Positions 1-45,425 of a stretch of 64,000 nt of DNA are shown here, piece by piece. Below the pieces are notes generated by a model that made no database searches, had not been told where the DNA came from, and worked only from the letters and a program-made list of their open reading frames with translations. Origin of the DNA: a virus (taxonomy: Duplodnaviria > Caudoviricetes); IMG/VR virus record IMGVR_UViG_3300049596_000679, positions 1 to 64,000 of that record; one strand, written 5' to 3'. Positions within the stretch are counted from its first letter, which is position 1, and each line of letters starts with the position of its first letter. The translations under genes and the position numbers were made by a program.

Positions 1-837
1 GTTTTGGCTCAGTATGAGAGTTCAAAACAAAGTGGTTCTTCTTCCACTTCAAAATTCACACAAGAAGAAAGAATGAAAAAGTATTTCGCGGCAATCCTTA
101 AGGATAACGAAAAACAAGGTCAACGAACAATCCGTATTTTACCTACAACTGATGGATCATCTCCTTTTAAGGAAGTTTGGTTTCACGAAATCAATGTTGA
201 TGGTAAATGGCAGAAGTTCTACGATCCAGGAAAAAATGACAACGAACGTTCACCTTTGAATGAGGTATATGACGAGTTAATGTCAACAGGTCGTGAATCC
301 GACAAACAATTAGCAACACAATACAAAGCACGTAAGTTTTATATTGTTAAAGTAATTGACCGAGATCACGAAGAAGATGGTGTTAAATTTTGGAGATTTA
401 AACACAATTACAAACAAGAAGGAATTCTTGATAAAATCATTCCAATTTGGAAAGCGAAAGGTGACGTTACTGATTCTGATACTGGTCGTGACTTAATCCT
501 TGAACTTACAAAGGCAAAGACACCAAAAGGTGCAACATATACGGTTATCCAAACCGTTATGTATGACGATCCGGCACCAACACATGAGGACGCTGAACAA
601 TCATCAACATGGATCAACAATGAGTTGACTTGGGAGGACGTATACTCTAAAAAACCTGTTGAATATCTTGAATCAATTGCAAGAGGTGAAACTCCACGTT
701 GGGACACTGACGCAGGAAAATACATCTACTCAAATAATCAAGAAGAAGAGATTTCTATGGGTGGAAGTGTAAAGTCTGAAGTTAAAAAGGCTGATCCTCA
801 GTCTAACCAAGAAGTTGACGAAGATTTACCATTCTAA
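1..837 (+). CDS. single-stranded DNA-binding protein, T4 gp32-like (probably 5'-truncated by the window)
   Basis: RTIRILP...PFKEVWFH, VKFWRF, GRDLIL motifs typical of gp32-like SSBs; acidic tail ending DEDLPF; frame is open from base 1. Confidence 0.75.
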   Translation, partial: VLAQYESSKQSGSSSTSKFTQEERMKKYFAAILKDNEKQGQRTIRILPTTDGSSPFKEVWFHEINVDGKWQKFYDPGKNDNERSPLNEVYDELMSTGRESDKQLATQYKARKFYIVKVIDRDHEEDGVKFWRFKHNYKQEGILDKIIPIWKAKGDVTDSDTGRDLILELTKAKTPKGATYTVIQTVMYDDPAPTHEDAEQSSTWINNELTWEDVYSKKPVEYLESIARGETPRWDTDAGKYIYSNNQEEEISMGGSVKSEVKKADPQSNQEVDEDLPF

Positions 838-2143: not shown

Positions 2144-3154
2144 ATGGTCAAAACATTAATTGTTGATGGTAACAATTTATTAAAAATAGGATTTCATGGG
2201 GTTAAGGATTTTTATAATAATGGGGAACACATTGGTGGGACTTGGCATTTTCTTAACACAATTCGTAAATTTTTAGAAGAAACTAATTTTAATAAAGTTA
2301 TGGTCTTTTGGGATAGTGATACAAACTCATCACAAAGAAAATTAATATATCCAAAATATAAGATGAATCGTAAATCTTCTCCTAATGATGAGGAGAAGAC
2401 TGATTCATTTAACAAACAAAAAACAAGGGTTAAACAATATCTTGAAGAGATGTTTATAAGACAATTAGAGGTTGAAAATTCGGAAGCGGATGATCTTATT
2501 GCCTACTATTGTCAAATCTCTTTAGATGAAGAGAAAACGATATTCTCAAGTGATAAAGACTTAACTCAATTAATCTCAGAAAAGGTATTAATCTATTCAC
2601 CAAACTTAAAGTCGTATTATAAATTTGGGGACAACATTAAATTTAAAGATTGTTCTATTCCTCATTATAATGTTATGACATTTAAGATCCTTGCTGGTGA
2701 TACTTCGGATAATATTGACGGAATAAGTTTAATGGGTGAGAAAACTTTAATTAAGTTTTTCCCTGAAATACTTGATTCAGAGATATCTTTAACCGATATT
2801 TTAACAAAGGGTGAGTTATTGTTAAAAGAACAACAAAAAAATGTTGTTTTAGGAAATCTACTCAGTGGAAAAACCAAAGAAGGTATTATGGGTGATGATT
2901 TTTTTAAAATCAATAAAAAACTCGTAGATTTGTCAGAACCTTTAATTGATGAAGAGGGTAAAGAAATGGTTAGGGAATATTACTCTGAATCGATGGATCC
3001 CGATGGGAGAGGACATAGAAACCTAATTAGAATGATGATGGATGACGGATTCTTCAAATACCTACCAAAAGGTGATGACTCTTGGGTTAATTTTTTAAAA
3101 CCATTTTTGAAATTATCAAGAAAAGAAAAAACAAAATTTAGAAACAAAAAGTAA
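2144..3154 (+). CDS. 5'-3' exonuclease / flap endonuclease (PolI N-terminal, T4 RNase H-like)
   Basis: LIVDGNN, VFWD, YPKYKMNR, EADDLIA, SSDKDLTQL, GDTSDNIDGI..MGEKT motifs. Confidence 0.92.
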   Translation: MVKTLIVDGNNLLKIGFHGVKDFYNNGEHIGGTWHFLNTIRKFLEETNFNKVMVFWDSDTNSSQRKLIYPKYKMNRKSSPNDEEKTDSFNKQKTRVKQYLEEMFIRQLEVENSEADDLIAYYCQISLDEEKTIFSSDKDLTQLISEKVLIYSPNLKSYYKFGDNIKFKDCSIPHYNVMTFKILAGDTSDNIDGISLMGEKTLIKFFPEILDSEISLTDILTKGELLLKEQQKNVVLGNLLSGKTKEGIMGDDFFKINKKLVDLSEPLIDEEGKEMVREYYSESMDPDGRGHRNLIRMMMDDGFFKYLPKGDDSWVNFLKPFLKLSRKEKTKFRNKK

Positions 3155-5064: not shown

Positions 5065-6924
5065 ATGGATATTTCACAAAAAATTTTAAGTGATATTACA
5101 GTGTATATGAAATACGCTAAATTTGTCCCCGAATTAAATAGAAGGGAAACGTGGGAAGAGTTGGTAACAAGAAATAAGGAGATGCACCAAAAGAGATACC
5201 CCCAAATTAAAGAAGAAATTGAAAACGTATACAAAATGGTATATGCTAAGAAAATTCTTCCATCAATGAGATCATTGCAATTTGGTGGGAAACCTATTGA
5301 AATTTCACCAAACAGAGTTTACAATTGTGCTTACATGCCGATTGACCATCCAGATGCGTTCTCTGAAACTATGTTCTTATTGTTAGGTGGAACGGGTGTT
5401 GGATTTTCAGTACAAAAACACCACGTTGATAAATTACCTGAGATTAAAAAACCAAACCCAGCAAGAACAAGACGTTACCTTATTGGTGATAGTATTGAGG
5501 GATGGGCAGACGCAATTAAAGTATTGGTTGAATCCTATTTGGGGGTTAAATCATCAACACCTATATTTGATTTCTCCGATATCCGACATAAAGGAGCATT
5601 ATTGGTGACTTCAGGTGGTAAAGCGCCTGGACCTCAACCACTTAAAGATTGTGTTCATAATATCACAAAAGTATTTGAAAACAAAAAAGATGGTGAAAGA
5701 TTGTCGCCTATTGAAACTCACGATATTGTATGTCATATTGCAGATGCGGTATTAGCGGGTGGTATCAGAAGAGCGGCACTTATTTCATTATTTAGTGCTG
5801 ATGATGAAGAAATGATTTCTTGTAAATCTGGAAACTGGTGGGAATCAAATCCACAGAGAGGTAGAGCAAACAACTCGGCGGTACTTCTTCGACACAAAAT
5901 CACAAAAGAATTCTTTATGGGTCTTTGGAAACGTATTGAGTTATCAGGGGCGGGTGAACCAGGAATCTATTTATCAAACGATAAAGATTGGGGAACCAAT
6001 CCATGTTGTGAGATTGCACTTCGACCTAATCAGTTCTGTAACTTATGTGAGGTAAATGCATCTGACATTGAATCACAAGAAGATTTTGAGGCAAGAGTTA
6101 AAGGAGCTGCGTTCATCGGAACATTACAAGCGGGTTACACTGACTTCCATTACTTAAGAGATGTGTGGAAAAGAACAACTGAGAAAGACGCTCTTATTGG
6201 TGTTGGAATGACGGGAATTGGTTCAGGTGTTGTTTTAGGTTATGATATGAAATCAGCGGCTGAAATGGTTAAACTTGAAAACGAAAGAGTTGCGAAACTT
6301 ATAGGTATTAACAAATCGGCAAGGTCAACAACCGTTAAACCATCAGGAACATCATCATTGGTGTTGGGGACTTCTTCAGGTATCCACGCATGGCACAATG
6401 ACTTTTACTTAAGAAGAATTCGTGTTGGTAAAAACGAAGCAATCTATTCTTATTTGGCAATTAATCATCCTGAGTTAGTAGAAGATGAGTTCTTCCGTCC
6501 TCACGATACGGCAGTTATCTCAATCCCACAAAAATCACCAGAAGGATCAATCCTTAGACACGAATCCGTATTCCAAATGTTGGAACGTGTTAAAAAGGTA
6601 TCACAAGAGTGGGTTAGAAATGGACACAGAACTGGTCAAAACACACATAATGTATCTGCAACGGTTTCCATTAAAGAAGACGAGTGGGACTTGGTGGGTG
6701 ATTGGATGTGGAATAATAGAAAATTCTATAATGGTTTATCAGTATTACCATACAACGGAGGAACTTACACACAAGCACCATTTGAAGATTGTACTGAAGA
6801 AGATTTTAACAACTTGTTAAGTACGTTGGAAGACGTGGATCTTACAAAAGTAATTGAATTACAAGACAATACAGACTTAAGAGGTGAAGTTGCGTGTGGG
6901 GCTAATGGATGTGAAATTTCTTAA
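5065..6924 (+). CDS. nrdJ: class II (adenosylcobalamin-dependent) ribonucleotide reductase
   Basis: RRETWEE, PSMRSLQ, YNCAY, GGTGVGFS, GGIRRAALI, TNPCCEI, TVKPSGT, C-terminal CGANGC pair; no beta-subunit gene adjacent. Confidence 0.9.
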   Translation: MDISQKILSDITVYMKYAKFVPELNRRETWEELVTRNKEMHQKRYPQIKEEIENVYKMVYAKKILPSMRSLQFGGKPIEISPNRVYNCAYMPIDHPDAFSETMFLLLGGTGVGFSVQKHHVDKLPEIKKPNPARTRRYLIGDSIEGWADAIKVLVESYLGVKSSTPIFDFSDIRHKGALLVTSGGKAPGPQPLKDCVHNITKVFENKKDGERLSPIETHDIVCHIADAVLAGGIRRAALISLFSADDEEMISCKSGNWWESNPQRGRANNSAVLLRHKITKEFFMGLWKRIELSGAGEPGIYLSNDKDWGTNPCCEIALRPNQFCNLCEVNASDIESQEDFEARVKGAAFIGTLQAGYTDFHYLRDVWKRTTEKDALIGVGMTGIGSGVVLGYDMKSAAEMVKLENERVAKLIGINKSARSTTVKPSGTSSLVLGTSSGIHAWHNDFYLRRIRVGKNEAIYSYLAINHPELVEDEFFRPHDTAVISIPQKSPEGSILRHESVFQMLERVKKVSQEWVRNGHRTGQNTHNVSATVSIKEDEWDLVGDWMWNNRKFYNGLSVLPYNGGTYTQAPFEDCTEEDFNNLLSTLEDVDLTKVIELQDNTDLRGEVACGANGCEIS

Positions 6925-39407: not shown

Positions 39408-41780
39408 ATGGACTTGTTCAACCCACCAAGATTATTTAATTACAATATAATGATAAAAGATTTAGACTTTTCAAAGTACGAAAATCCTACAATACAAGTT
39501 GTATGGGAAGACCTACAAGAAAATTTCACACAAGATAAGATTAAGAGTGTTAAACATTATTTCCAAAAGAAATATAACACTACCAATGTTAATGTATTAA
39601 CAAAGGTTAAAAACGTTGAGACAGATACAATGCAAAGTATTGATGTGTCTGTTAATGTAACTGATGTTAATTATCAACTTGATCTACTAAAGAAATTTTT
39701 AGAGTCTAAAGGGTACACTAACTATACTGAAGATATTTTAGGTATCAACAGAATGGTTGAGAACCGAATGAAAGAGGATGAGACTGAAACAACACAATTC
39801 AAAAAGTGGTATATCAGAAACATTGAGTTTTCAAACTTCTTATCATATGGTGAGAATCAAAGAATAGATTTTGATAAATGCAACGGGGTTGTCGTTGTTG
39901 AATCAGATCCACCTAACTTTGGTGGGAAGACCGTTCTTTCTGTGGATTTGTTGTTGTTCTTATTCTTTAATGAGACAACAAAGACTACAAAGGCTGAAGA
40001 AATCTTTAACCGATTTACCGATAAAGACTCGGTAGTTGTTAAAGGTGAAGTTACAATTGATGGGGAAGATTATATTATCCTTAGAAAGATTGAAAGAAAA
40101 CTTTCTAAAAAAGGAGAATGGAATGTGAAAACAGAATTGGACTTCTTTAAAAAAATGGCCGATGGTAGTTTACTGAATTTCACGGGGGAACAAAGAAGGG
40201 AAACTGAGTCGTTCATTAAAAATTCCATTGGAACCAAAGAAGATTTCTTAATGACCATACTTACAACCGCAACCAATCTTGAGGAGTTATTGGAGTCAAA
40301 ACCAACCGCAAGAGGACAGGTGTTGTCAAGATTTATGGGGCTTGAGTTTTTAAAACGGAAAGAGGAAGTTGGTAAAGAGATTTATTCTGAATTTAATAAA
40401 TCAAAGATGTCGAACATTTATAATTCGGAAGAATTAAAAGGTGATAACGAATCTTTAACAACAAAAATCGGTGAATTAAATGATCAAATTGATTTGATCA
40501 AATTGGAACTTAACGATATTGATGATAAAATCGTTAAGGGAAAAGAGTATCGTGATGATATGTTGAAGAAGAAACACGGAGACATTGATAAGGAAATCAG
40601 TTTGATGAACCCGGTTAAAACTCAAGAAGAAATCGATGGTTTTGAAAGAGAAAAGACAACGTTCAAACAAAAGTTAGACGAACTTAAAGTTGTTGAACCA
40701 AAAGAGTTTTATCATGAGGATGATCACGATAAAATTAAAGAGGAATACAATGGTGTGTTCAAATCTAAAATTGAACTTGAAACACAGATCAGAGAAATTG
40801 AGAAATTAAAGAGTTCTGTGAGTGATGGTATTAAATGTGAACATTGTGGAATTGAGTTAATGAACGCATCAATAACCCAACAAAAAATTGCCGAACTTGA
40901 TGGTTATATCATGCATAAAGACCAAAAAGAGGGGTTAATGCAGGTTTTATCAGGCAAAGAACAAGCTTTCGTTCAGTTAAAGAAAGACTTTGATGAGTAT
41001 GAGAAAAACAAACTTATTAAAGAGAAATATGAGTTGAGTATTGAAAGTTGTGATTTAAAGATTGGAGTTTTAAAAGGTAAGTTGGATCGTTGGGGTGATG
41101 TTCAGGATAAGATCAAAGAGAATACTCAGATCGATTCAATGTTGATTAAGGCTGACTTAAGGTTGGATGAACTTGATCATCTTAAAAGACAAAAAAACAC
41201 AAACATTACAAACAATGAATACCAAATCAAAACTTGTAATGAAAAGATTGATAACAATAAAAAGTTAATTGTTAAGATTAAAGAGGAAGAGGAGAGGGAA
41301 AGAATTTACAAAATCTATATGGAAGCCTTTGGTAAAAATGGATTGTCAAAAATCATTATGAAAACAATGATGCCTTTGATTAACTCTGAGTTACAAAGAT
41401 TGATGGAAGATAGTTGTTACTTCAAATTGGAAATTAGAATTAACGATAAGAATGAAGTTGAATTCTTGATGATTGATAATAGTACTGGTATTGAAAAATT
41501 AATGGTTTCAGGGTCAGGATATGAAAGAACAATCGCATCATTAGCATTACGATCGGTACTTAGTAAGGTATGTACTTTGCCAAAACCAAATATTGTAGTT
41601 TTTGATGAGGTATTTGGGAAAATCAGTAATGATAACCTTGAAATGATATCTGAGTTCTTCCAAAAAATTAAAGAATATTTTGATAAAGTGTTCCTTATAA
41701 GTCACAACCCTCTAATTTCAAATTGGTCGGATACTATTGTTAAAATCAAAAAAGAAAATAATATATCAAAAGTTTTGTAG
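39408..41780 (+). CDS. sbcC: Rad50/SbcC-like SMC ATPase (gp46-like) with an N-terminal extension
   Basis: FSNFLSYG, P-loop NFGGKT, Zn hook CEHC, signature SGSGYE, Walker B VVFDE, ISH. Confidence 0.9.
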   Translation: MDLFNPPRLFNYNIMIKDLDFSKYENPTIQVVWEDLQENFTQDKIKSVKHYFQKKYNTTNVNVLTKVKNVETDTMQSIDVSVNVTDVNYQLDLLKKFLESKGYTNYTEDILGINRMVENRMKEDETETTQFKKWYIRNIEFSNFLSYGENQRIDFDKCNGVVVVESDPPNFGGKTVLSVDLLLFLFFNETTKTTKAEEIFNRFTDKDSVVVKGEVTIDGEDYIILRKIERKLSKKGEWNVKTELDFFKKMADGSLLNFTGEQRRETESFIKNSIGTKEDFLMTILTTATNLEELLESKPTARGQVLSRFMGLEFLKRKEEVGKEIYSEFNKSKMSNIYNSEELKGDNESLTTKIGELNDQIDLIKLELNDIDDKIVKGKEYRDDMLKKKHGDIDKEISLMNPVKTQEEIDGFEREKTTFKQKLDELKVVEPKEFYHEDDHDKIKEEYNGVFKSKIELETQIREIEKLKSSVSDGIKCEHCGIELMNASITQQKIAELDGYIMHKDQKEGLMQVLSGKEQAFVQLKKDFDEYEKNKLIKEKYELSIESCDLKIGVLKGKLDRWGDVQDKIKENTQIDSMLIKADLRLDELDHLKRQKNTNITNNEYQIKTCNEKIDNNKKLIVKIKEEEERERIYKIYMEAFGKNGLSKIIMKTMMPLINSELQRLMEDSCYFKLEIRINDKNEVEFLMIDNSTGIEKLMVSGSGYERTIASLALRSVLSKVCTLPKPNIVVFDEVFGKISNDNLEMISEFFQKIKEYFDKVFLISHNPLISNWSDTIVKIKKENNISKVL

Positions 41781-41806
41781 TTAATTAGATTTTATTCGTA
41801 TATTTG
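41774..41806 (+). promoter_or_regulatory. Bacteroidota housekeeping-type promoter TTTG-N21-TATATTTG
   Basis: matches the -33 TTTG / -7 TAnnTTTG consensus. Confidence 0.75.
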
Positions 41807-41828: not shown

Positions 41829-42353
41829 ATGAATTACTTACTTTTTGTATACCACAATGAAGATATAACAAACCCTGACGAAACAACTGCAAACATTGGG
41901 GCTGAGTTATCAAAAATTATGTCATCAAATCAAATTAAATATATGTTTGGTGATAAACACTCAATTTATCATTTCGCAAGTGATTTCTCTGTTGATGAGA
42001 TTGATGATTTTTTATGTTTAGTTTCTAATGAATTTGAAAACTTTAATTATTTCTTAACTCAAAAAACTAAAAATGTCAAATCTAATTTTGATCAAGACAA
42101 CTTATTACATTTACTTACGTTAAGGAATACCAATAGTAGAAAACAAACTCCACCTAAAAAGTTTGAATTTAAAATGGATCTTGGTAGTAATGAGGAGTTT
42201 GCTCGTATGGCAGAAACTATTATGGGTTTGGTACCTAAAAAAAGATGTGATTTAACACTGGATGAACTTTTAGATAAGATCAGCGATCAAGGTCTCAATT
42301 CACTGACTGAAGAAGAAAAAAATAAATTAGACGAATATTCAAAAAACTATTAA
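41829..42353 (+). CDS. hypothetical protein with a C-terminal DUF6576-like domain
   Basis: LDELLDKISDQGLNSLTEEEKNKLDEYS. Confidence 0.7.
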   Translation: MNYLLFVYHNEDITNPDETTANIGAELSKIMSSNQIKYMFGDKHSIYHFASDFSVDEIDDFLCLVSNEFENFNYFLTQKTKNVKSNFDQDNLLHLLTLRNTNSRKQTPPKKFEFKMDLGSNEEFARMAETIMGLVPKKRCDLTLDELLDKISDQGLNSLTEEEKNKLDEYSKNY

Positions 42354-42361
42354 TTAAATAT

Positions 42362-43162
42362 ATGAAAGACAAAAACCTAGGGATTCCGATTAACCAAGAA
42401 GAGATTCAACACTATCTAAAAGATATTCGTAGAATTAAAGTAATGACACCTGAGAGAGAAAAAGAACTGGCGGTTAAGATGAAGTCTGATGACACACCTA
42501 AACGTGAGAGAGAAAAAATTGAATCTGAGTTATTAGTTGGTAATTTACGTTTTGTAATTACGGTGGCTAAACAATATCAAAATCAAGGTTTGGATCTATC
42601 TGATTTGATTGCTGAAGGTAACTTGGGTTTGATGAAAGCGATTAAAAACTTTGATTGGCATAAAGATCTACGTTTTATATCATACGCAGTTTGGTGGGTT
42701 AAACAATCTATAATCCAATCGTTGAATGATAACGCAAGAACAATCAGACTTCCAGTTAATGTCGTTCAGGACCTACATAAGGCTAAAAAAGAAATTGCAA
42801 TTACAGGTAAAGAATTAGAATTAAAGTTTTCATCATTACCATCTATGATTGATTTGGATATGACAATAAATGATGAAGGCGATACATTGGTTGATATGAT
42901 TGCTAATCCTAACGCACTTGCTCCTGATGCAGGGTTCAACACTAAAGATATGTTAAAGAACAAATTAATATCTTTATTGAATGTATTAGATGACAGAGAG
43001 AAAGTGATCATTGAGGATTACTTCGGATTAAGTGGGACACCAAGAACACTTGAAGACATTGGTGGGGACTTTGGTTTAACTAAAGAACGAGTTAGACAGA
43101 TTAAGGAAAGAGCCCTTAGAAGGTTAAGAAATGAAAGTTCAGAATTATTTGATTACTTATAA
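42362..43162 (+). CDS. RNA polymerase sigma-70 family factor, Bacteroidota primary-sigma-like
   Basis: NLRFVITVAKQYQNQGLDLSDLIAEGNLGL, FISYAVWW, RTIRLP, TLEDIG..LTKERVRQI; no region 1.1. Confidence 0.93.
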   Translation: MKDKNLGIPINQEEIQHYLKDIRRIKVMTPEREKELAVKMKSDDTPKREREKIESELLVGNLRFVITVAKQYQNQGLDLSDLIAEGNLGLMKAIKNFDWHKDLRFISYAVWWVKQSIIQSLNDNARTIRLPVNVVQDLHKAKKEIAITGKELELKFSSLPSMIDLDMTINDEGDTLVDMIANPNALAPDAGFNTKDMLKNKLISLLNVLDDREKVIIEDYFGLSGTPRTLEDIGGDFGLTKERVRQIKERALRRLRNESSELFDYL

Positions 43163-43174
43163 AAAATAAAAAAC

Positions 43175-43621
43175 ATGGGAAGTGTAATTGATTATATTGA
43201 ATGTCCAAATTGTAAACAAGAAGCGTTTAGTGACTTCTATTACAAAACAGGTGAAGATTATATAAATTGTAGTAATTGTGGGTACCATTATGCTCAAACA
43301 TTAAAAAGAGATGAGGATGGGAAATTTGTAACCAAAGATGGTACTGATAATTATAACTTTGATAATCTTATCATGGAAGTTTCGGAACTTAAAAACCCGT
43401 TTGGTTCGTATCGTTTAAAAGTTTATCAATCACCAGCAACTCAAGTTGGGTCATTTGAAACTGAGGAACAATATAATGAGTTTAAGTTACAAATTGAAGG
43501 GGATATTGAAATTGAATTCTGTTCTGTGTCAAGATTTGTTGATGGTGAAATCAAAGTTGAAATGATAATTGATAATGGACCTAAGGTTGATTCTGCTGGA
43601 TTTACAATTGAGGATCGTTAA
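43175..43621 (+). CDS. Zn-ribbon-containing hypothetical protein
   Basis: CPNC...CSNCG. Confidence 0.75.
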   Translation: MGSVIDYIECPNCKQEAFSDFYYKTGEDYINCSNCGYHYAQTLKRDEDGKFVTKDGTDNYNFDNLIMEVSELKNPFGSYRLKVYQSPATQVGSFETEEQYNEFKLQIEGDIEIEFCSVSRFVDGEIKVEMIIDNGPKVDSAGFTIEDR

Positions 43622-43632
43622 TTTAAAAAAGA

Positions 43633-43664
43633 TTTGGCAGATTGAAATAAAATACTTATATTTG
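43633..43664 (+). promoter_or_regulatory. Bacteroidota housekeeping-type promoter TTTG-N20-TATATTTG
   Basis: perfect consensus, yet no normal CDS follows. Confidence 0.75.
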
Positions 43665-43667
43665 TAA

Positions 43668-43810
43668 GACAAACGAAAAGGGTTGAACCGAGATTACCCT
43701 TACAACTCGGCGGAATGAGACACGATGTTCTCTGGGTGAAAATCCTCAATCTTACTCGTGATGTAAGATGAAACTACACTCCCCCATTGGTACCAGTGGG
43801 GGTTTATTTT
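43668..43810 (+). ncRNA. candidate structured small RNA (H-type pseudoknot plus hairpins)
   Basis: AAGGGT/ACCCTT and CCGAG/CTCGG interleaved stems; GGGT-GAAA-ATCC; ATCTTAC/GTAAGAT; bounded by promoter and terminator; GC-richer than flanks. Confidence 0.55.
43781..43810. terminator. GC-rich terminator hairpin
   Basis: CCCCCATTGG-TA-CCAGTGGGGG followed by TTTATTTT; abuts the end of the convergent gene. Confidence 0.75.
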
Positions 43811-44223
43811 GCGGTAATAACTAGTTGACCTCTACCGACATAAAAATCAGACTTCCGCATAACGGTTTTAATAATAAGATTAAATTCGTAAGGATTAATT
43901 TCTTCTATTAGAATTGGAATATTAAGTAGGGTTGATTCATCTTTAATTACAAACTCAACACCATCATATAACTCACCAATGACAATATATTGTACTATAT
44001 CGTCCTTTACCTTAGATACTGATTTTAATATATCATAATCTCTAATAGCATCACCACCTTCTGAAAAATGTCTAGATTTTTGTGATTCTGCGTGGGACTT
44101 CATTCCAGGTACCTTTCCACGTTGGTACCTTAAATTCATGGTGACAGTAAGGTTTGCTTTGATCTCAGCAATCTTCTTTTCTAAGATTAAAATTTTACGT
44201 ATTGATTCTCTAAGTAATGACAT
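43804..44223 (-). CDS. hypothetical protein with an 'LRESIRKILILE' leader
   Basis: 139 aa; TATTTAT motif upstream on the minus strand. Confidence 0.75.
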   Translation of the reverse strand: MSLLRESIRKILILEKKIAEIKANLTVTMNLRYQRGKVPGMKSHAESQKSRHFSEGGDAIRDYDILKSVSKVKDDIVQYIVIGELYDGVEFVIKDESTLLNIPILIEEINPYEFNLIIKTVMRKSDFYVGRGQLVITAK

Positions 44224-44229
44224 AATTAT

Positions 44230-44259
44230 ATAAATACCTTATATTGATATTTATAAATA
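44230..44259. promoter_or_regulatory. divergent TATTTAT motifs, including the palindrome TATTTATAAATA
   Basis: ATAAATA at 44230; TATTTATAAATA at 44248-44259 between divergent genes. Confidence 0.55.
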
Positions 44260-44270
44260 CAAACATTACT

Positions 44271-45425
44271 ATGAAAGAAAAATTTTTACCTTGGTTTTTA
44301 TTATTTTGTGCTCTTGGTCTATCAGGAACTGCCGCTTATTATAGTGTGGTAGGGTTATCAGTGGTATTTGTTGGGGTTGCGTTACCTGTAATCATTATGG
44401 GATCTTTTCTTGAGATATCTAAGATTGCAATTGCAACATACTTACACGACAAGTGGAAAGAAACATACGGAGTCTTAAAGATATACCTTACAATTGCTCT
44501 TGTGACATTGTCTTTGATTACTTCACTTGGGATCTATGGTTTATTAAGTACTGGATTTCAAGGGAATATTGCAAAACTTGAGATTAATCAAAAAAAGATT
44601 GCAAATGTTGAAGTAAAGAAAACAAGATTTATTGAAATAAAAAACGAACAACAGAAAGAGAAAGATGTGTTAGATAAGGACATTTCAAAGTTACGTGATG
44701 GTTTATCTAATAATACAACAACACAATCTGTAGATAGAAAAACAGGTCAACTTATTACAAAGGCAAATAATGCTAACCGTAAATCATTTGAGGACCAATT
44801 AAAACTTACAACAGAAAATAGGGATAAAGTATCAACTCGGATTGATGCTATGAATGATAGTATCACCAAATTGGATATTGAGATACTAAATATGGAATCT
44901 GCAGAACTTGAAGGAAGTGAATTAGGTTCTATTAAATATATTAGTGAACTTTCAGGTTGGGATGTTAAAAAAGTGGCGAACCTTTTCATTTTACTTTTAA
45001 TTTTTGTATTTGATCCGTTAGCAATTACATTAGTTATTGCGACTAACCAAGCATTTAAAAAAAATAAAAAAGAAAGTAGTACCATACATGATACCATACA
45101 TGATACCATACATGATGAGGTTGAAGTTCCTGAAAATTTATTATATGATTTAACCCCCCAAGCCGAACCAATTGTGGTTGAAAAAATTGTTGAGGTTATT
45201 AAGGAAGTGGAGAAGATTGTTGAGGTACCTGTTGAGGTTATTAAGGAAGTAGAAAAAATTGTTGAAGTACCTGTAATAGTATATAGAGAACCATTAAATA
45301 TTATTGAGGTAAATACTTGGGAACCTGAGATAATTGAAACTAATGGTACGGGTGGTGAGTCAACAACTACCACAACAACTGATGATGGTATTAAAAGATT
45401 AGTTTATAAAAAGAACGATGAATGA
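44271..45425 (+). CDS. membrane protein with coiled coil and VEKIVEVPVE repeats
   Basis: ATG at 44271; three N-terminal TM helices, coiled coil, fourth TM (IFVFDPLA), repeats. Confidence 0.8.
   Translation: MKEKFLPWFLLFCALGLSGTAAYYSVVGLSVVFVGVALPVIIMGSFLEISKIAIATYLHDKWKETYGVLKIYLTIALVTLSLITSLGIYGLLSTGFQGNIAKLEINQKKIANVEVKKTRFIEIKNEQQKEKDVLDKDISKLRDGLSNNTTTQSVDRKTGQLITKANNANRKSFEDQLKLTTENRDKVSTRIDAMNDSITKLDIEILNMESAELEGSELGSIKYISELSGWDVKKVANLFILLLIFVFDPLAITLVIATNQAFKKNKKESSTIHDTIHDTIHDEVEVPENLLYDLTPQAEPIVVEKIVEVIKEVEKIVEVPVEVIKEVEKIVEVPVIVYREPLNIIEVNTWEPEIIETNGTGGESTTTTTTDDGIKRLVYKKNDE
45081..45275 (+). repeat. perfect 12-nt x3 repeat (TIHD) and VEKIVEV(P/I) repeats
   Basis: ACCATACATGAT x3 at 45081-45116; EVIKEVEKIVEVPV repeats. 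Confidence 0.85.

Follow-up and report, generated by a model that had tools for sequence, protein, structure and literature searches.

What is made from the short interval that separates a zinc-ribbon gene from a convergent open reading frame (ORF) in the genome of a large phage found in metagenomes? The stretch of DNA analyzed here, hereafter called the window, comprises positions 1 to 64,000 of the 85.9-kb virus record IMGVR_UViG_3300049596_000679, which is estimated to be 29% complete. The interval carries an element of about 140 nt on the + strand (43669-43810), with a host-type promoter and an intrinsic terminator, and no ORF of 60 amino acids (aa) or more was found inside it. An initial annotation, made from the sequence, had described a stand-alone structured RNA with an H-type pseudoknot. 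We found that the element is a non-coding structured small RNA encoded on the + strand and backed by covariation. The RNA family and its fold were previously undescribed, matching no curated family or searched paper, a claim of novelty that does not extend to the kind of function. The carriers are some large (jumbo) freshwater phages of Bacteroidota, in which the RNA is an optional cassette beside a sigma-factor gene.

Forty-eight loci were brought in through relatives of the 148-aa gene located upstream of the element, and blastn detected the element in 20 out of 56 loci collected by that stage, the window's own locus being counted. A 20-mer from the element, GGGTTGAACCGAGATTACCC, matched exactly in 90 IMG/VR contigs and in one of 185,579 species genomes, where it lies on a 5.7-kb contig (L147) of a metagenome-assembled genome (MAG) of the Crocinitomicaceae. 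The loci collected contain 110 occurrences of the element, and 61 distinct full-length variants were aligned (alignment A1, to which all counts out of 61 refer). A covariance model built for the family, R1, added four members with a differing 20-mer among the loci fetched via the sigma gene, and a metagenome scan using the junction variant of the bacterial copy returned two contigs, both of the phage type. The RNA family has at least 94 natural members. The public runs in which the sequence occurs are metagenomes of lakes or fresh water; of the 24 rows listed, 22 contain it in whole or in part, six of these being RNA libraries. R1 also gave two weak matches elsewhere in the window (620-726 and 5849-5937), both inside long ORFs, which were taken as chance.

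The + strand of the element folds better than its shuffles (z -3.09, with 1 of 200 as good), and the - strand does not (z -0.67, with 47 of 200 as good). Across the 61 variants, G-U pairs are consistent with the + strand only. A seven-helix model, comprising the two stems of a 5' pseudoknot (S1 and S2), a second pseudoknot (PK2), three hairpins (P3, P4, and P5), and the terminator, was evaluated on the alignment. With this model, 93.3% of the cells were paired, as opposed to 85.0% in column shuffles, and 20 pairs changed on both sides. The covariation score reached 0.306, compared with 0.159 in the shuffles, none of 500 being as high, and a control in which the 3' partner was slid by 1-3 columns did not exceed 0.104. 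The examination of homologs for covariation that the initial annotation had proposed was thus carried out, and it supports S1, the three hairpins, and the terminator. The fold has a compact core of about 75 nt; invariant positions in the RNA number about 40, and its invariant block is about 36 nt long.

The H-type pseudoknot that had been drawn by eye was borne out by covariation for one of its two stems. S1 pairs 43678-43683 with 43696-43701 (43678-43701, + strand), and its loop contains the 5' strand of S2. Its GGGU/ACCC pairs are invariant, and the next pair outward, 43679:43700, is A-U in 33 variants, U-A in 21, and another combination in seven; this covarying pair switches within both of the clades defined by P3. 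The second stem, S2, would pair CCGAG (43688-43692) with CUCGG (43706-43710) (43688-43710, + strand). It is present with all five pairs invariant in 61 of the 61 variants, and its pairing is predicted from complementarity only, because the pairs never vary. An IMG/VR scan in which both strands of S2 were left free returned the same 90 contigs, as did a scan with the 3' strand of S1 free, and in an earlier pattern scan for S2 variation every non-CCGAG sequence among the matches listed was unrelated. The knot bases UUGAA and AUU were fixed in every search pattern, and their constancy was probed solely by the four members found with R1, which show A13 replaced by U and the facing bases U11 and U22 replaced by C and A, the latter two jointly in loci L199 and L208. 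The 12-mer ACAACTCGGCGG, made of the 3' strand of S2 and its flanks, recurs at 5866-5881 on the sense strand of a 619-aa ORF (5065-6924). By our own arithmetic, about 0.008 such matches are expected per window of this size, and this recurrence was taken as chance.

A second knot, which the first reading of the sequence had missed, emerged from an all-against-all covariation scan that singled out column 39 (G or A, just after S2) against column 51 (C or U, in the P3 loop). In this second pseudoknot, PK2, CGG (43711-43713) would pair with ACG (43722-43724) in the loop of P3 (43711-43724, + strand), contiguous with S2. The pair 39:51 is G-C in 41 variants, A-U in 15, and G-U in three, and the pair 38:52 is C-G in 59 of the 61; the third pair, 40:50, is G-C in 18, U-A in two, and non-standard in 41, where the column counts place G opposite A. 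PK2 is probable on this evidence, in which case two H-type knots would stand in series on the single strand CUCGG-CGG.

The remaining helices follow towards the 3' end. P3 (43717-43732, + strand) is a 5-bp hairpin with a one-base bulge at 43728 and a 5-nt loop; all five pairs change on both sides and 95.7% of the cells are paired. P5 (43749-43769, + strand) is a 7-bp hairpin with a variable loop, in which four of the seven pairs change on both sides and 91.8% of the cells are paired. The bulged hairpin and the 7-bp hairpin of the initial annotation are therefore present and covary. The GAAA-tetraloop hairpin proposed between them (GGGT-GAAA-ATCC) was not retained, since a 3-bp stem with a 7-nt loop, UGAAANU, describes it better (P4, 43734-43746, + strand) and the presumed U-A closing pair is found in only 34 of the 61 variants. 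In P4, GG/CC is invariant and the outer pair is A-U in 32 variants, G-U in 19, and G-C in nine. The loop follows the pattern U-G-N-N-A-N-U, with the U and the G each kept in 59 of the 61 variants and the fifth-position A in all of them; it may resemble a T-loop. An 11-nt conserved single-stranded tail, GAAACUACACU (43770-43780, + strand), each base of which is kept in 45-61 of the 61 variants, joins P5 to the terminator. RNAalifold offered an alternative in which a 4-bp helix, GGUU/AACY, formed with the tail replaces S1; this helix shows no change on both sides and clashes with the covarying pair of S1, and it was rejected.

An 18-codon ORF (43715-43771, + strand), which the initial annotation had considered as a possible regulated leader peptide, overlaps P3, P4, and P5. 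It is open in the window and a frame of 17-18 codons is kept in about 27 of the 61 variants. However, the ATG is present in 40 variants and missing in 21, and in 13 more the frame stops after 1-14 codons. The residues encoded within the hairpins change freely while the pairing is kept, the compensating changes in P5 turning TRDV into ILAI, which is not a conservative replacement. A family conserving the peptide and losing the pairing would have argued against a structured RNA; the opposite was found, the peptide varying precisely where the stems covary. Comparison of the variants thus indicates that this ORF is not a gene, and a small protein or leader peptide made from it is scarcely credible.

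Searches against known RNAs were negative. None of the families of Rfam 15 reached its gathering score over the whole 64-kb window, and with a threshold of E <= 10, the region 43400-44000 gave seven matches, all sub-threshold; those on the element were snoU43 (17.8 bits for a threshold of 45) and, both on the terminator, NsiR1 (18.5 for 39) and ClpQY_promoter (13.7 for 42). ARAGORN found no transfer RNA (tRNA) or transfer-messenger RNA (tmRNA) gene in the whole window, nor in the relative locus L233. The earlier statement that the element could not be assigned to tRNA, tmRNA, or a known ribozyme therefore holds. A blastn search of 43100-44300 against 50,697 GenBank phage records did not find the RNA, and its one match was restricted to the promoter region (43620-43673), which is 85% identical over 54 nt to the 634,780-bp uncultured phage record LR745206.1. 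The pseudoknot sequence was not found in searchable papers, a search outside which lie the supplementary motif lists of the surveys PMC5737381, PMC8040213, and bioRxiv 10.64898/2026.09.22.753630. Keyword searches of the literature gave nothing of relevance; PMC13472631 deals with guide RNAs of dCas12f-sigma-E systems, and nothing in the element corresponds to them.

The promoter, the terminator, and all other motifs named in the initial annotation were recovered in the window. A TTTG at 43633-43636 and the box TATATTTG at 43657-43664, spaced by 20 nt, form the -33 and -7 elements of a promoter of the Bacteroidota sigma-A type (43633-43664, + strand). The motif TTTG-N18-22-TAnnTTTG occurs 19 times in the window, for 4.45 +/- 1.89 expected, and none of 100 shuffles reached 19. 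According to PMC9723704, the flavobacterial sigma-A -7 box is TAnnTTTG, located at -12 to -5; because the box has this position, transcription of the element is predicted to start near 43669. The intrinsic terminator (43781-43810, + strand), found by a terminator scan and supported by covariation, has a stem at 43781-43802 with nine pairs, six of them G-C, followed by a T tract. Seven of the nine pairs change on both sides among the 61 variants, and a terminator lies behind the RNA in nearly all of them. In the window, it adjoins the stop codon of a convergent 139-aa ORF (43804-44223, - strand). As had been noticed, the interval is richer in G and C (0.40-0.46 over 43650-43849) than its flanks (0.29-0.34 just upstream and 0.26-0.32 just downstream).

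The description of the RNA as standing alone behind its promoter applies to the clade of the window and to a few other lineages, but not generally. Among 59 distinct upstream contexts, a -7 box was present within 30 nt upstream of the RNA in 18, of which 10 have the full -33/-7 motif, and was absent from 41. Promoters located 11-23 nt upstream of the RNA were gained in several lineages. Most contexts have no -7 box of their own, and the RNA would therefore be made there by read-through from the early operon. An own promoter and an intrinsic terminator, as expected of an independently expressed small RNA, are thus both predicted in the window, and the promoter is lineage-specific in the relatives. 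A second full host-type promoter motif is located at 41774-41806, just upstream of the DUF6576 and sigma genes (41829-43162), and for this reason the phage sigma factor itself is probably transcribed early by the host RNA polymerase.

Assembled metatranscriptome contigs from four runs, belonging to four different studies, cover the element, although the depth of these contigs cannot rank the RNA against its flanks. The first run contains a 187-nt contig (43588-43773) that is the only piece within 1.4 kb, the second a 111-nt contig carrying the upstream sequence of a relative, and the third a 431-nt contig. All three contigs run unbroken over the 5' edge of the fold.

We then compared the surroundings of the RNA in 77 distinct phage contexts, 67 of which have enough upstream sequence and 68 enough downstream sequence to be scored. 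The gene order is an SbcC-like gene, DUF6576, the sigma-70 gene, an optional insert, the RNA with its terminator, an optional convergent gene, a gene for a 393-aa membrane-type protein, and an Amidase_2 gene. In the window, the phage sigma-70 family gene (42362-43162, + strand) encodes a protein with Pfam matches to Sigma70 regions 1.2, 2, and 4. In 55 of the 67 contexts, a sigma gene was found upstream of the RNA. Of these, 24 have at most 20 nt between the sigma stop codon and the start of the RNA, 27 have another gene inserted between the sigma gene and the RNA, and four have a gap of 52-536 nt there; no sigma gene was seen within 3 kb in the remaining 12 contexts. In 16 of the 27 contexts with an insert, the inserted gene is the zinc-ribbon gene, as in the clade of the window, where it encodes 148 aa (43175-43621, + strand) and shows a weak match to Lar_restr_allev (E 9e-4, below the Pfam cut-off). 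The next gene downstream is convergent in 24 of the 68 contexts, window included, and the terminator is thus a true end in those contexts; in 32 of the 68, the 393-aa gene comes next on the same strand.

Other inserts between the sigma gene and the RNA encode C5 cytosine DNA methyltransferases (L062:2-823, L129:420-1244, and L128:3447-5235, with two in tandem in L128) and a 305-aa protein with DUF723, DUF2726, and zinc-finger matches (L031:2073-2987). With such insertions of methyltransferase and other genes, the site is a hot spot of accessory genes. Further cassettes occur there in relatives (L233:3300-3650, and upstream of the RNA copy in L110 and L115), each having a promoter of the host type; the sequences predicted to be transcribed first are similar (GTATCACAAAC). 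One cassette continues with about 150 nt of GC-rich, structured sequence and then a terminator, and no Rfam or tRNA match was obtained for any of these cassettes. On the other side of the RNA, the 393-aa gene of the window contains short tandem repeats (45060-45120), one of them encoding the peptide repeat HDTIHDTIHD, and EVIKEVEKIVEVP occurs twice near the C-terminal end. The terminator scan scored the repeat that encodes HDTIHDTIHD as long imperfect hairpins on the - strand.

The RNA is not a constant companion of the sigma gene. IMG/VR contains 356 relatives of the sigma protein, and the loci of the best 80 were fetched. Forty-one of these loci have the RNA, 37 with the exact 20-mer and four by R1, and 39 do not have it within 2.5 kb. 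In these 39 loci, the order from the sigma gene to the 393-aa gene is intact and the gap is only about 75-85 nt in some; in two of them, the RNA lies further downstream on the same contig, behind two methyltransferase genes, leaving 37 of the 80 without RNA. Three whole phage records of 304, 291, and 274 kb (100, 99, and 93% complete), with sigma proteins 80-82% identical, gave no R1 match at E <= 1. On a sigma tree of 81 rows, the presence of the RNA requires at least eight gains or losses, seven being forced by well-supported branches, and 24 are required by shuffled labels. Some phages have identical sigma proteins and yet differ in the presence of the RNA; when one such pair was aligned, one cassette was seen to replace another while the flanks on both sides were conserved. 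Elsewhere these two records run collinearly over 23.5 kb with 92-97% identity and few insertions or deletions, an overlap too short to show a co-varying partner. Furthermore, the median nucleotide identity to the window is 85% for the RNA core, 75% for the sigma gene, and 74% for the 393-aa gene (82 rows, which are not independent), and in one phage group, the RNA is 97-98% identical to that of the window while the sigma gene is only 75% identical, which indicates exchange. The RNA is thus an optional, exchangeable cassette in a variable hot spot that also collects genes of the anti-restriction type, and not a core part of the phage.

The only copy in the species genomes, on the Crocinitomicaceae MAG contig L147, has its core at 3022-3123 (77.6 bits with R1). 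One side of this locus looks cellular, with TonB-receptor-like proteins and proteins sorted by the type IX secretion system, and on the other side is a ComM-like gene. About 100 nt downstream of the core begins a 256-aa gene, followed by a 243-aa gene. The start of the former is fixed by five relative clusters, all unnamed, in 5.8 billion proteins, and the latter has no relatives. Pfam and PADLOC made no assignment for the neighboring genes except for one weak coiled-coil match in a 287-aa frame, the protein atlas gave no lead for them, and no likeness was found between the phage 393-aa protein and the bacterial neighbor. A search of 151 Crocinitomicaceae genomes with R1 recovered the RNA from this MAG alone, and the 256-aa gene, looked for in 401 Flavobacteriales genomes, turned up in no genome but its own. 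L147 retains the core, P3 having undergone compensating changes, but differs in P5 and the tail; the knot, P3, and P4 together therefore behave as an autonomous module. L147 also has, immediately 5' of the knot, a 6-bp hairpin (AGUUGA...UCAACU, L147:2996-3023), whose 3' arm could pair instead with GUUGA of the knot, and this hairpin may be a switch.

The reading that we prefer, with a probability of roughly 40%, is that of a folded RNA that acts in trans by binding a partner, probably in the conflict between phage and host. The RNA would be made early, either from its own host sigma-A promoter, as in the window, or by read-through of the sigma-factor early operon, and would fold into the 5' H-type pseudoknot of S1 and S2, then a second small knot with the P3 loop, P4, P5, the 11-nt tail, and the terminator. 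Acting as a decoy, mimic, or sponge, its invariant pseudoknot domain would bind a partner, either protein or small molecule, which would most likely be a host factor of defence or takeover. Two observations suggest trans action: a promoter was acquired in the lineages where the RNA and the sigma gene became separated, and the terminator often has a convergent gene behind it. We consider a folded binding object because the most constrained part is the knotted domain and not a linear seed, and a role in host conflict is preferred to one involving sigma or RNA polymerase because the sigma gene is retained in close relatives that have dispensed with the RNA. The accessory distribution, together with the position of the bacterial copy 5' of two gene frames, makes a decoy or mimic attractive. 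A more specific version, in which a stand-alone aptamer or decoy made early would soak up a component of host immunity (a signalling molecule, or the effector of an RNA-protein system) and L147 would hold the cellular original, a riboswitch or an antitoxin-like RNA, appears rather unlikely as formulated.

Several known systems offer points of comparison for this preferred reading. Type III antitoxin RNAs (ToxI, CptI, and TenpI) consist of a 34-45 nt unit in tandem direct repeats, with an adjacent gene for a toxin endoribonuclease. These antitoxins and their phage-borne pseudo-ToxI mimics resemble the element in being small pseudoknotted RNAs, carried by a phage without the gene of the protein partner. 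The bacterial copy shares the order of an RNA followed by a protein gene, and the phage element has an accessory position among genes of the anti-restriction type. Unlike a type III antitoxin, the element is a multi-domain RNA of about 100 nt; neither tandem nor direct repeats were found within 43600-43850, no Rfam family matches, and no ToxN-like endoribonuclease was identified by Pfam or PADLOC beside the bacterial copy. RNA anti-CRISPRs have in common with it a promoter-RNA-terminator cassette in an accessory region, and the invariant block of the element is about 36 nt. A 65-nt query of the 401 Flavobacteriales genomes, a set that need not include the host, gave no CRISPR-repeat-like copies and only chance matches in coding sequences, and the reading as a mimic of a CRISPR repeat was dropped. 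In its mode of action, the element may be closest to phage-borne mimics of antitoxins or repeats, or to small RNAs that bind proteins. Since it fails features of type III antitoxins, 6S RNA, tRNA and tmRNA, Rfam families, and CRISPR mimics, it was filed as a new family.

Other explanations give the RNA a role at the site where it is made. A self-cleaving ribozyme or processing module, cutting near the 5' edge, would free the small RNA from the upstream messenger RNA (mRNA) and remove the protective terminator of that mRNA. Several features of the RNA are in line with this view: the core is small (about 75 nt) and doubly pseudoknotted, many of its bases are invariant, the distance to the preceding stop codon is no more than 20 nt in 24 of the 67 contexts, no particular upstream sequence is required, the distribution is patchy like that of a mobile element, and the core also occurs in an unrelated bacterial context. 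The compact two-pseudoknot core and the scattered, optional distribution in phages are also points of likeness to the small self-cleaving ribozymes. However, no ribozyme family of Rfam matched even at E <= 10, and two H-type knots in series, with the helix order S1-S2-S1'-S2'-PK2-P3-PK2'-P3', fit none of the plans of the hepatitis delta virus (HDV)-like, twister, pistol, and hatchet classes. Moreover, a 5' cut is pointless in the lineages that gained a promoter 11-23 nt upstream, and contigs of three RNA libraries are unbroken over the 5' edge, which is a weak argument as they may derive from DNA. Self-cleavage is thus unlikely. The same applies to a cis-acting module at the 3' end of the early sigma operon, serving mRNA stability or insulation from the downstream membrane-protein and amidase genes. 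It would account for the 24 of 67 contexts in which the RNA comes directly behind the sigma stop codon, for the presence of sigma upstream in 55, for the constant position between the sigma gene and the 393-aa gene, and for the terminator found in nearly all variants, but the terminator alone would suffice for it and an invariant fold of 100 nt is left unexplained. In 27 of the 67 contexts, sigma and the RNA are separated by inserted genes, 18 of the 59 upstream contexts have their own promoters, close relatives, including phages with an identical sigma, do without the RNA, and the bacterial copy is not beside a sigma gene. Small RNAs that derive from 3' untranslated regions or are made independently likewise share the terminator of the upstream mRNA and are expressed by read-through or from their own promoter according to the lineage, although the element is far more structured than those that pair through a seed, and no target complementarity was found for it in the window.

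Pairing of the tail or of a loop with host or phage mRNAs is suggested by the conserved unpaired 11-nt tail just before the terminator and by the typical promoter-RNA-terminator layout. Apart from its own opposite strand, no site complementary to the tail with at most one mismatch was found in the 64-kb window, where 1.32 are expected by chance, the host genome being outside this search. In addition, conservation resides mostly in the folded parts, and a base-pairing small RNA is for these reasons improbable. An equally low probability is given to a regulator of the transcription machinery, which, as a 6S RNA analogue or an RNA anti-sigma, would bind the host holoenzyme or the phage sigma factor and tune the switch from host to phage promoters. 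The persistent linkage and co-transcription with the phage sigma-70 gene and the early host-type promoter are consistent with such a role, but all members come from one phage group with a conserved gene order, and adjacency to sigma therefore carries little weight. The likeness to sigma-factor biology is one of position only: 37 of the best 80 sigma loci do not have the RNA, nor do the three near-complete genomes, whose sigma proteins are 80-82% identical, Rfam gave no 6S match, and the fold departs from the 6S plan in having neither a long closing stem joining the 5' and 3' ends nor a central bubble. Finally, a riboswitch or attenuator, with an aptamer and a terminator platform controlling the 393-aa membrane-protein gene, or the 256-aa gene in the bacterial copy, is very doubtful. 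In its favor, an invariant pseudoknotted core is followed 11 nt later by a terminator, in 32 of the 68 contexts the following gene is the 393-aa gene, in the same orientation, and the bacterial copy lies 5' of a gene; riboswitches of the preQ1-I and SAM-II types similarly have an H-type pseudoknot, an A-rich third loop, and invariant stems before a terminator. Against it, a convergent gene separates the terminator from the 393-aa gene in 24 of the 68 contexts, window included, no antiterminator pairing was seen by eye, without a systematic search for one, no known class matches, the downstream genes have no metabolic annotation, and the element has the additional conserved helices P3-P5.

Some observations weigh against our preferred reading of a trans-acting, partner-binding RNA, or temper the evidence for it. 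S2 shows no covariation, and the changes in PK2 largely follow clades, and independent events are therefore few. The high conservation of the RNA may partly reflect recent exchange rather than constraint. The search for members relied on an exact pattern, and divergent members were possibly missed. Across contexts, no protein gene is constantly linked to the RNA in cis. The bacterial copy is a single locus whose neighbor has only five relative clusters and no family, and the AlphaFold model of this neighbor was unusable (mean predicted local distance difference test score, pLDDT, of 39). As for expression, the fourth RNA-library run contains a 1,264-nt contig extending across both flanking genes, and the contigs of all these runs attest presence in the libraries and not ends, strand, or level, with a possible carry-over of DNA.

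To our knowledge, few phage non-coding RNAs have tertiary folds supported by covariation. The near-identical jumbo phages with and without the RNA constitute a natural experiment in which a direct comparison is possible. With surroundings of the anti-restriction type and a lone bacterial copy, the idea that the RNA serves counter-defence, or that it is a new catalytic or ligand-binding RNA, is directly testable. If the fold self-cleaves, it would represent a new ribozyme class, and if the more specific version with a component of host immunity is true, an RNA sponge directed against defence would constitute a new class of phage counter-defence.

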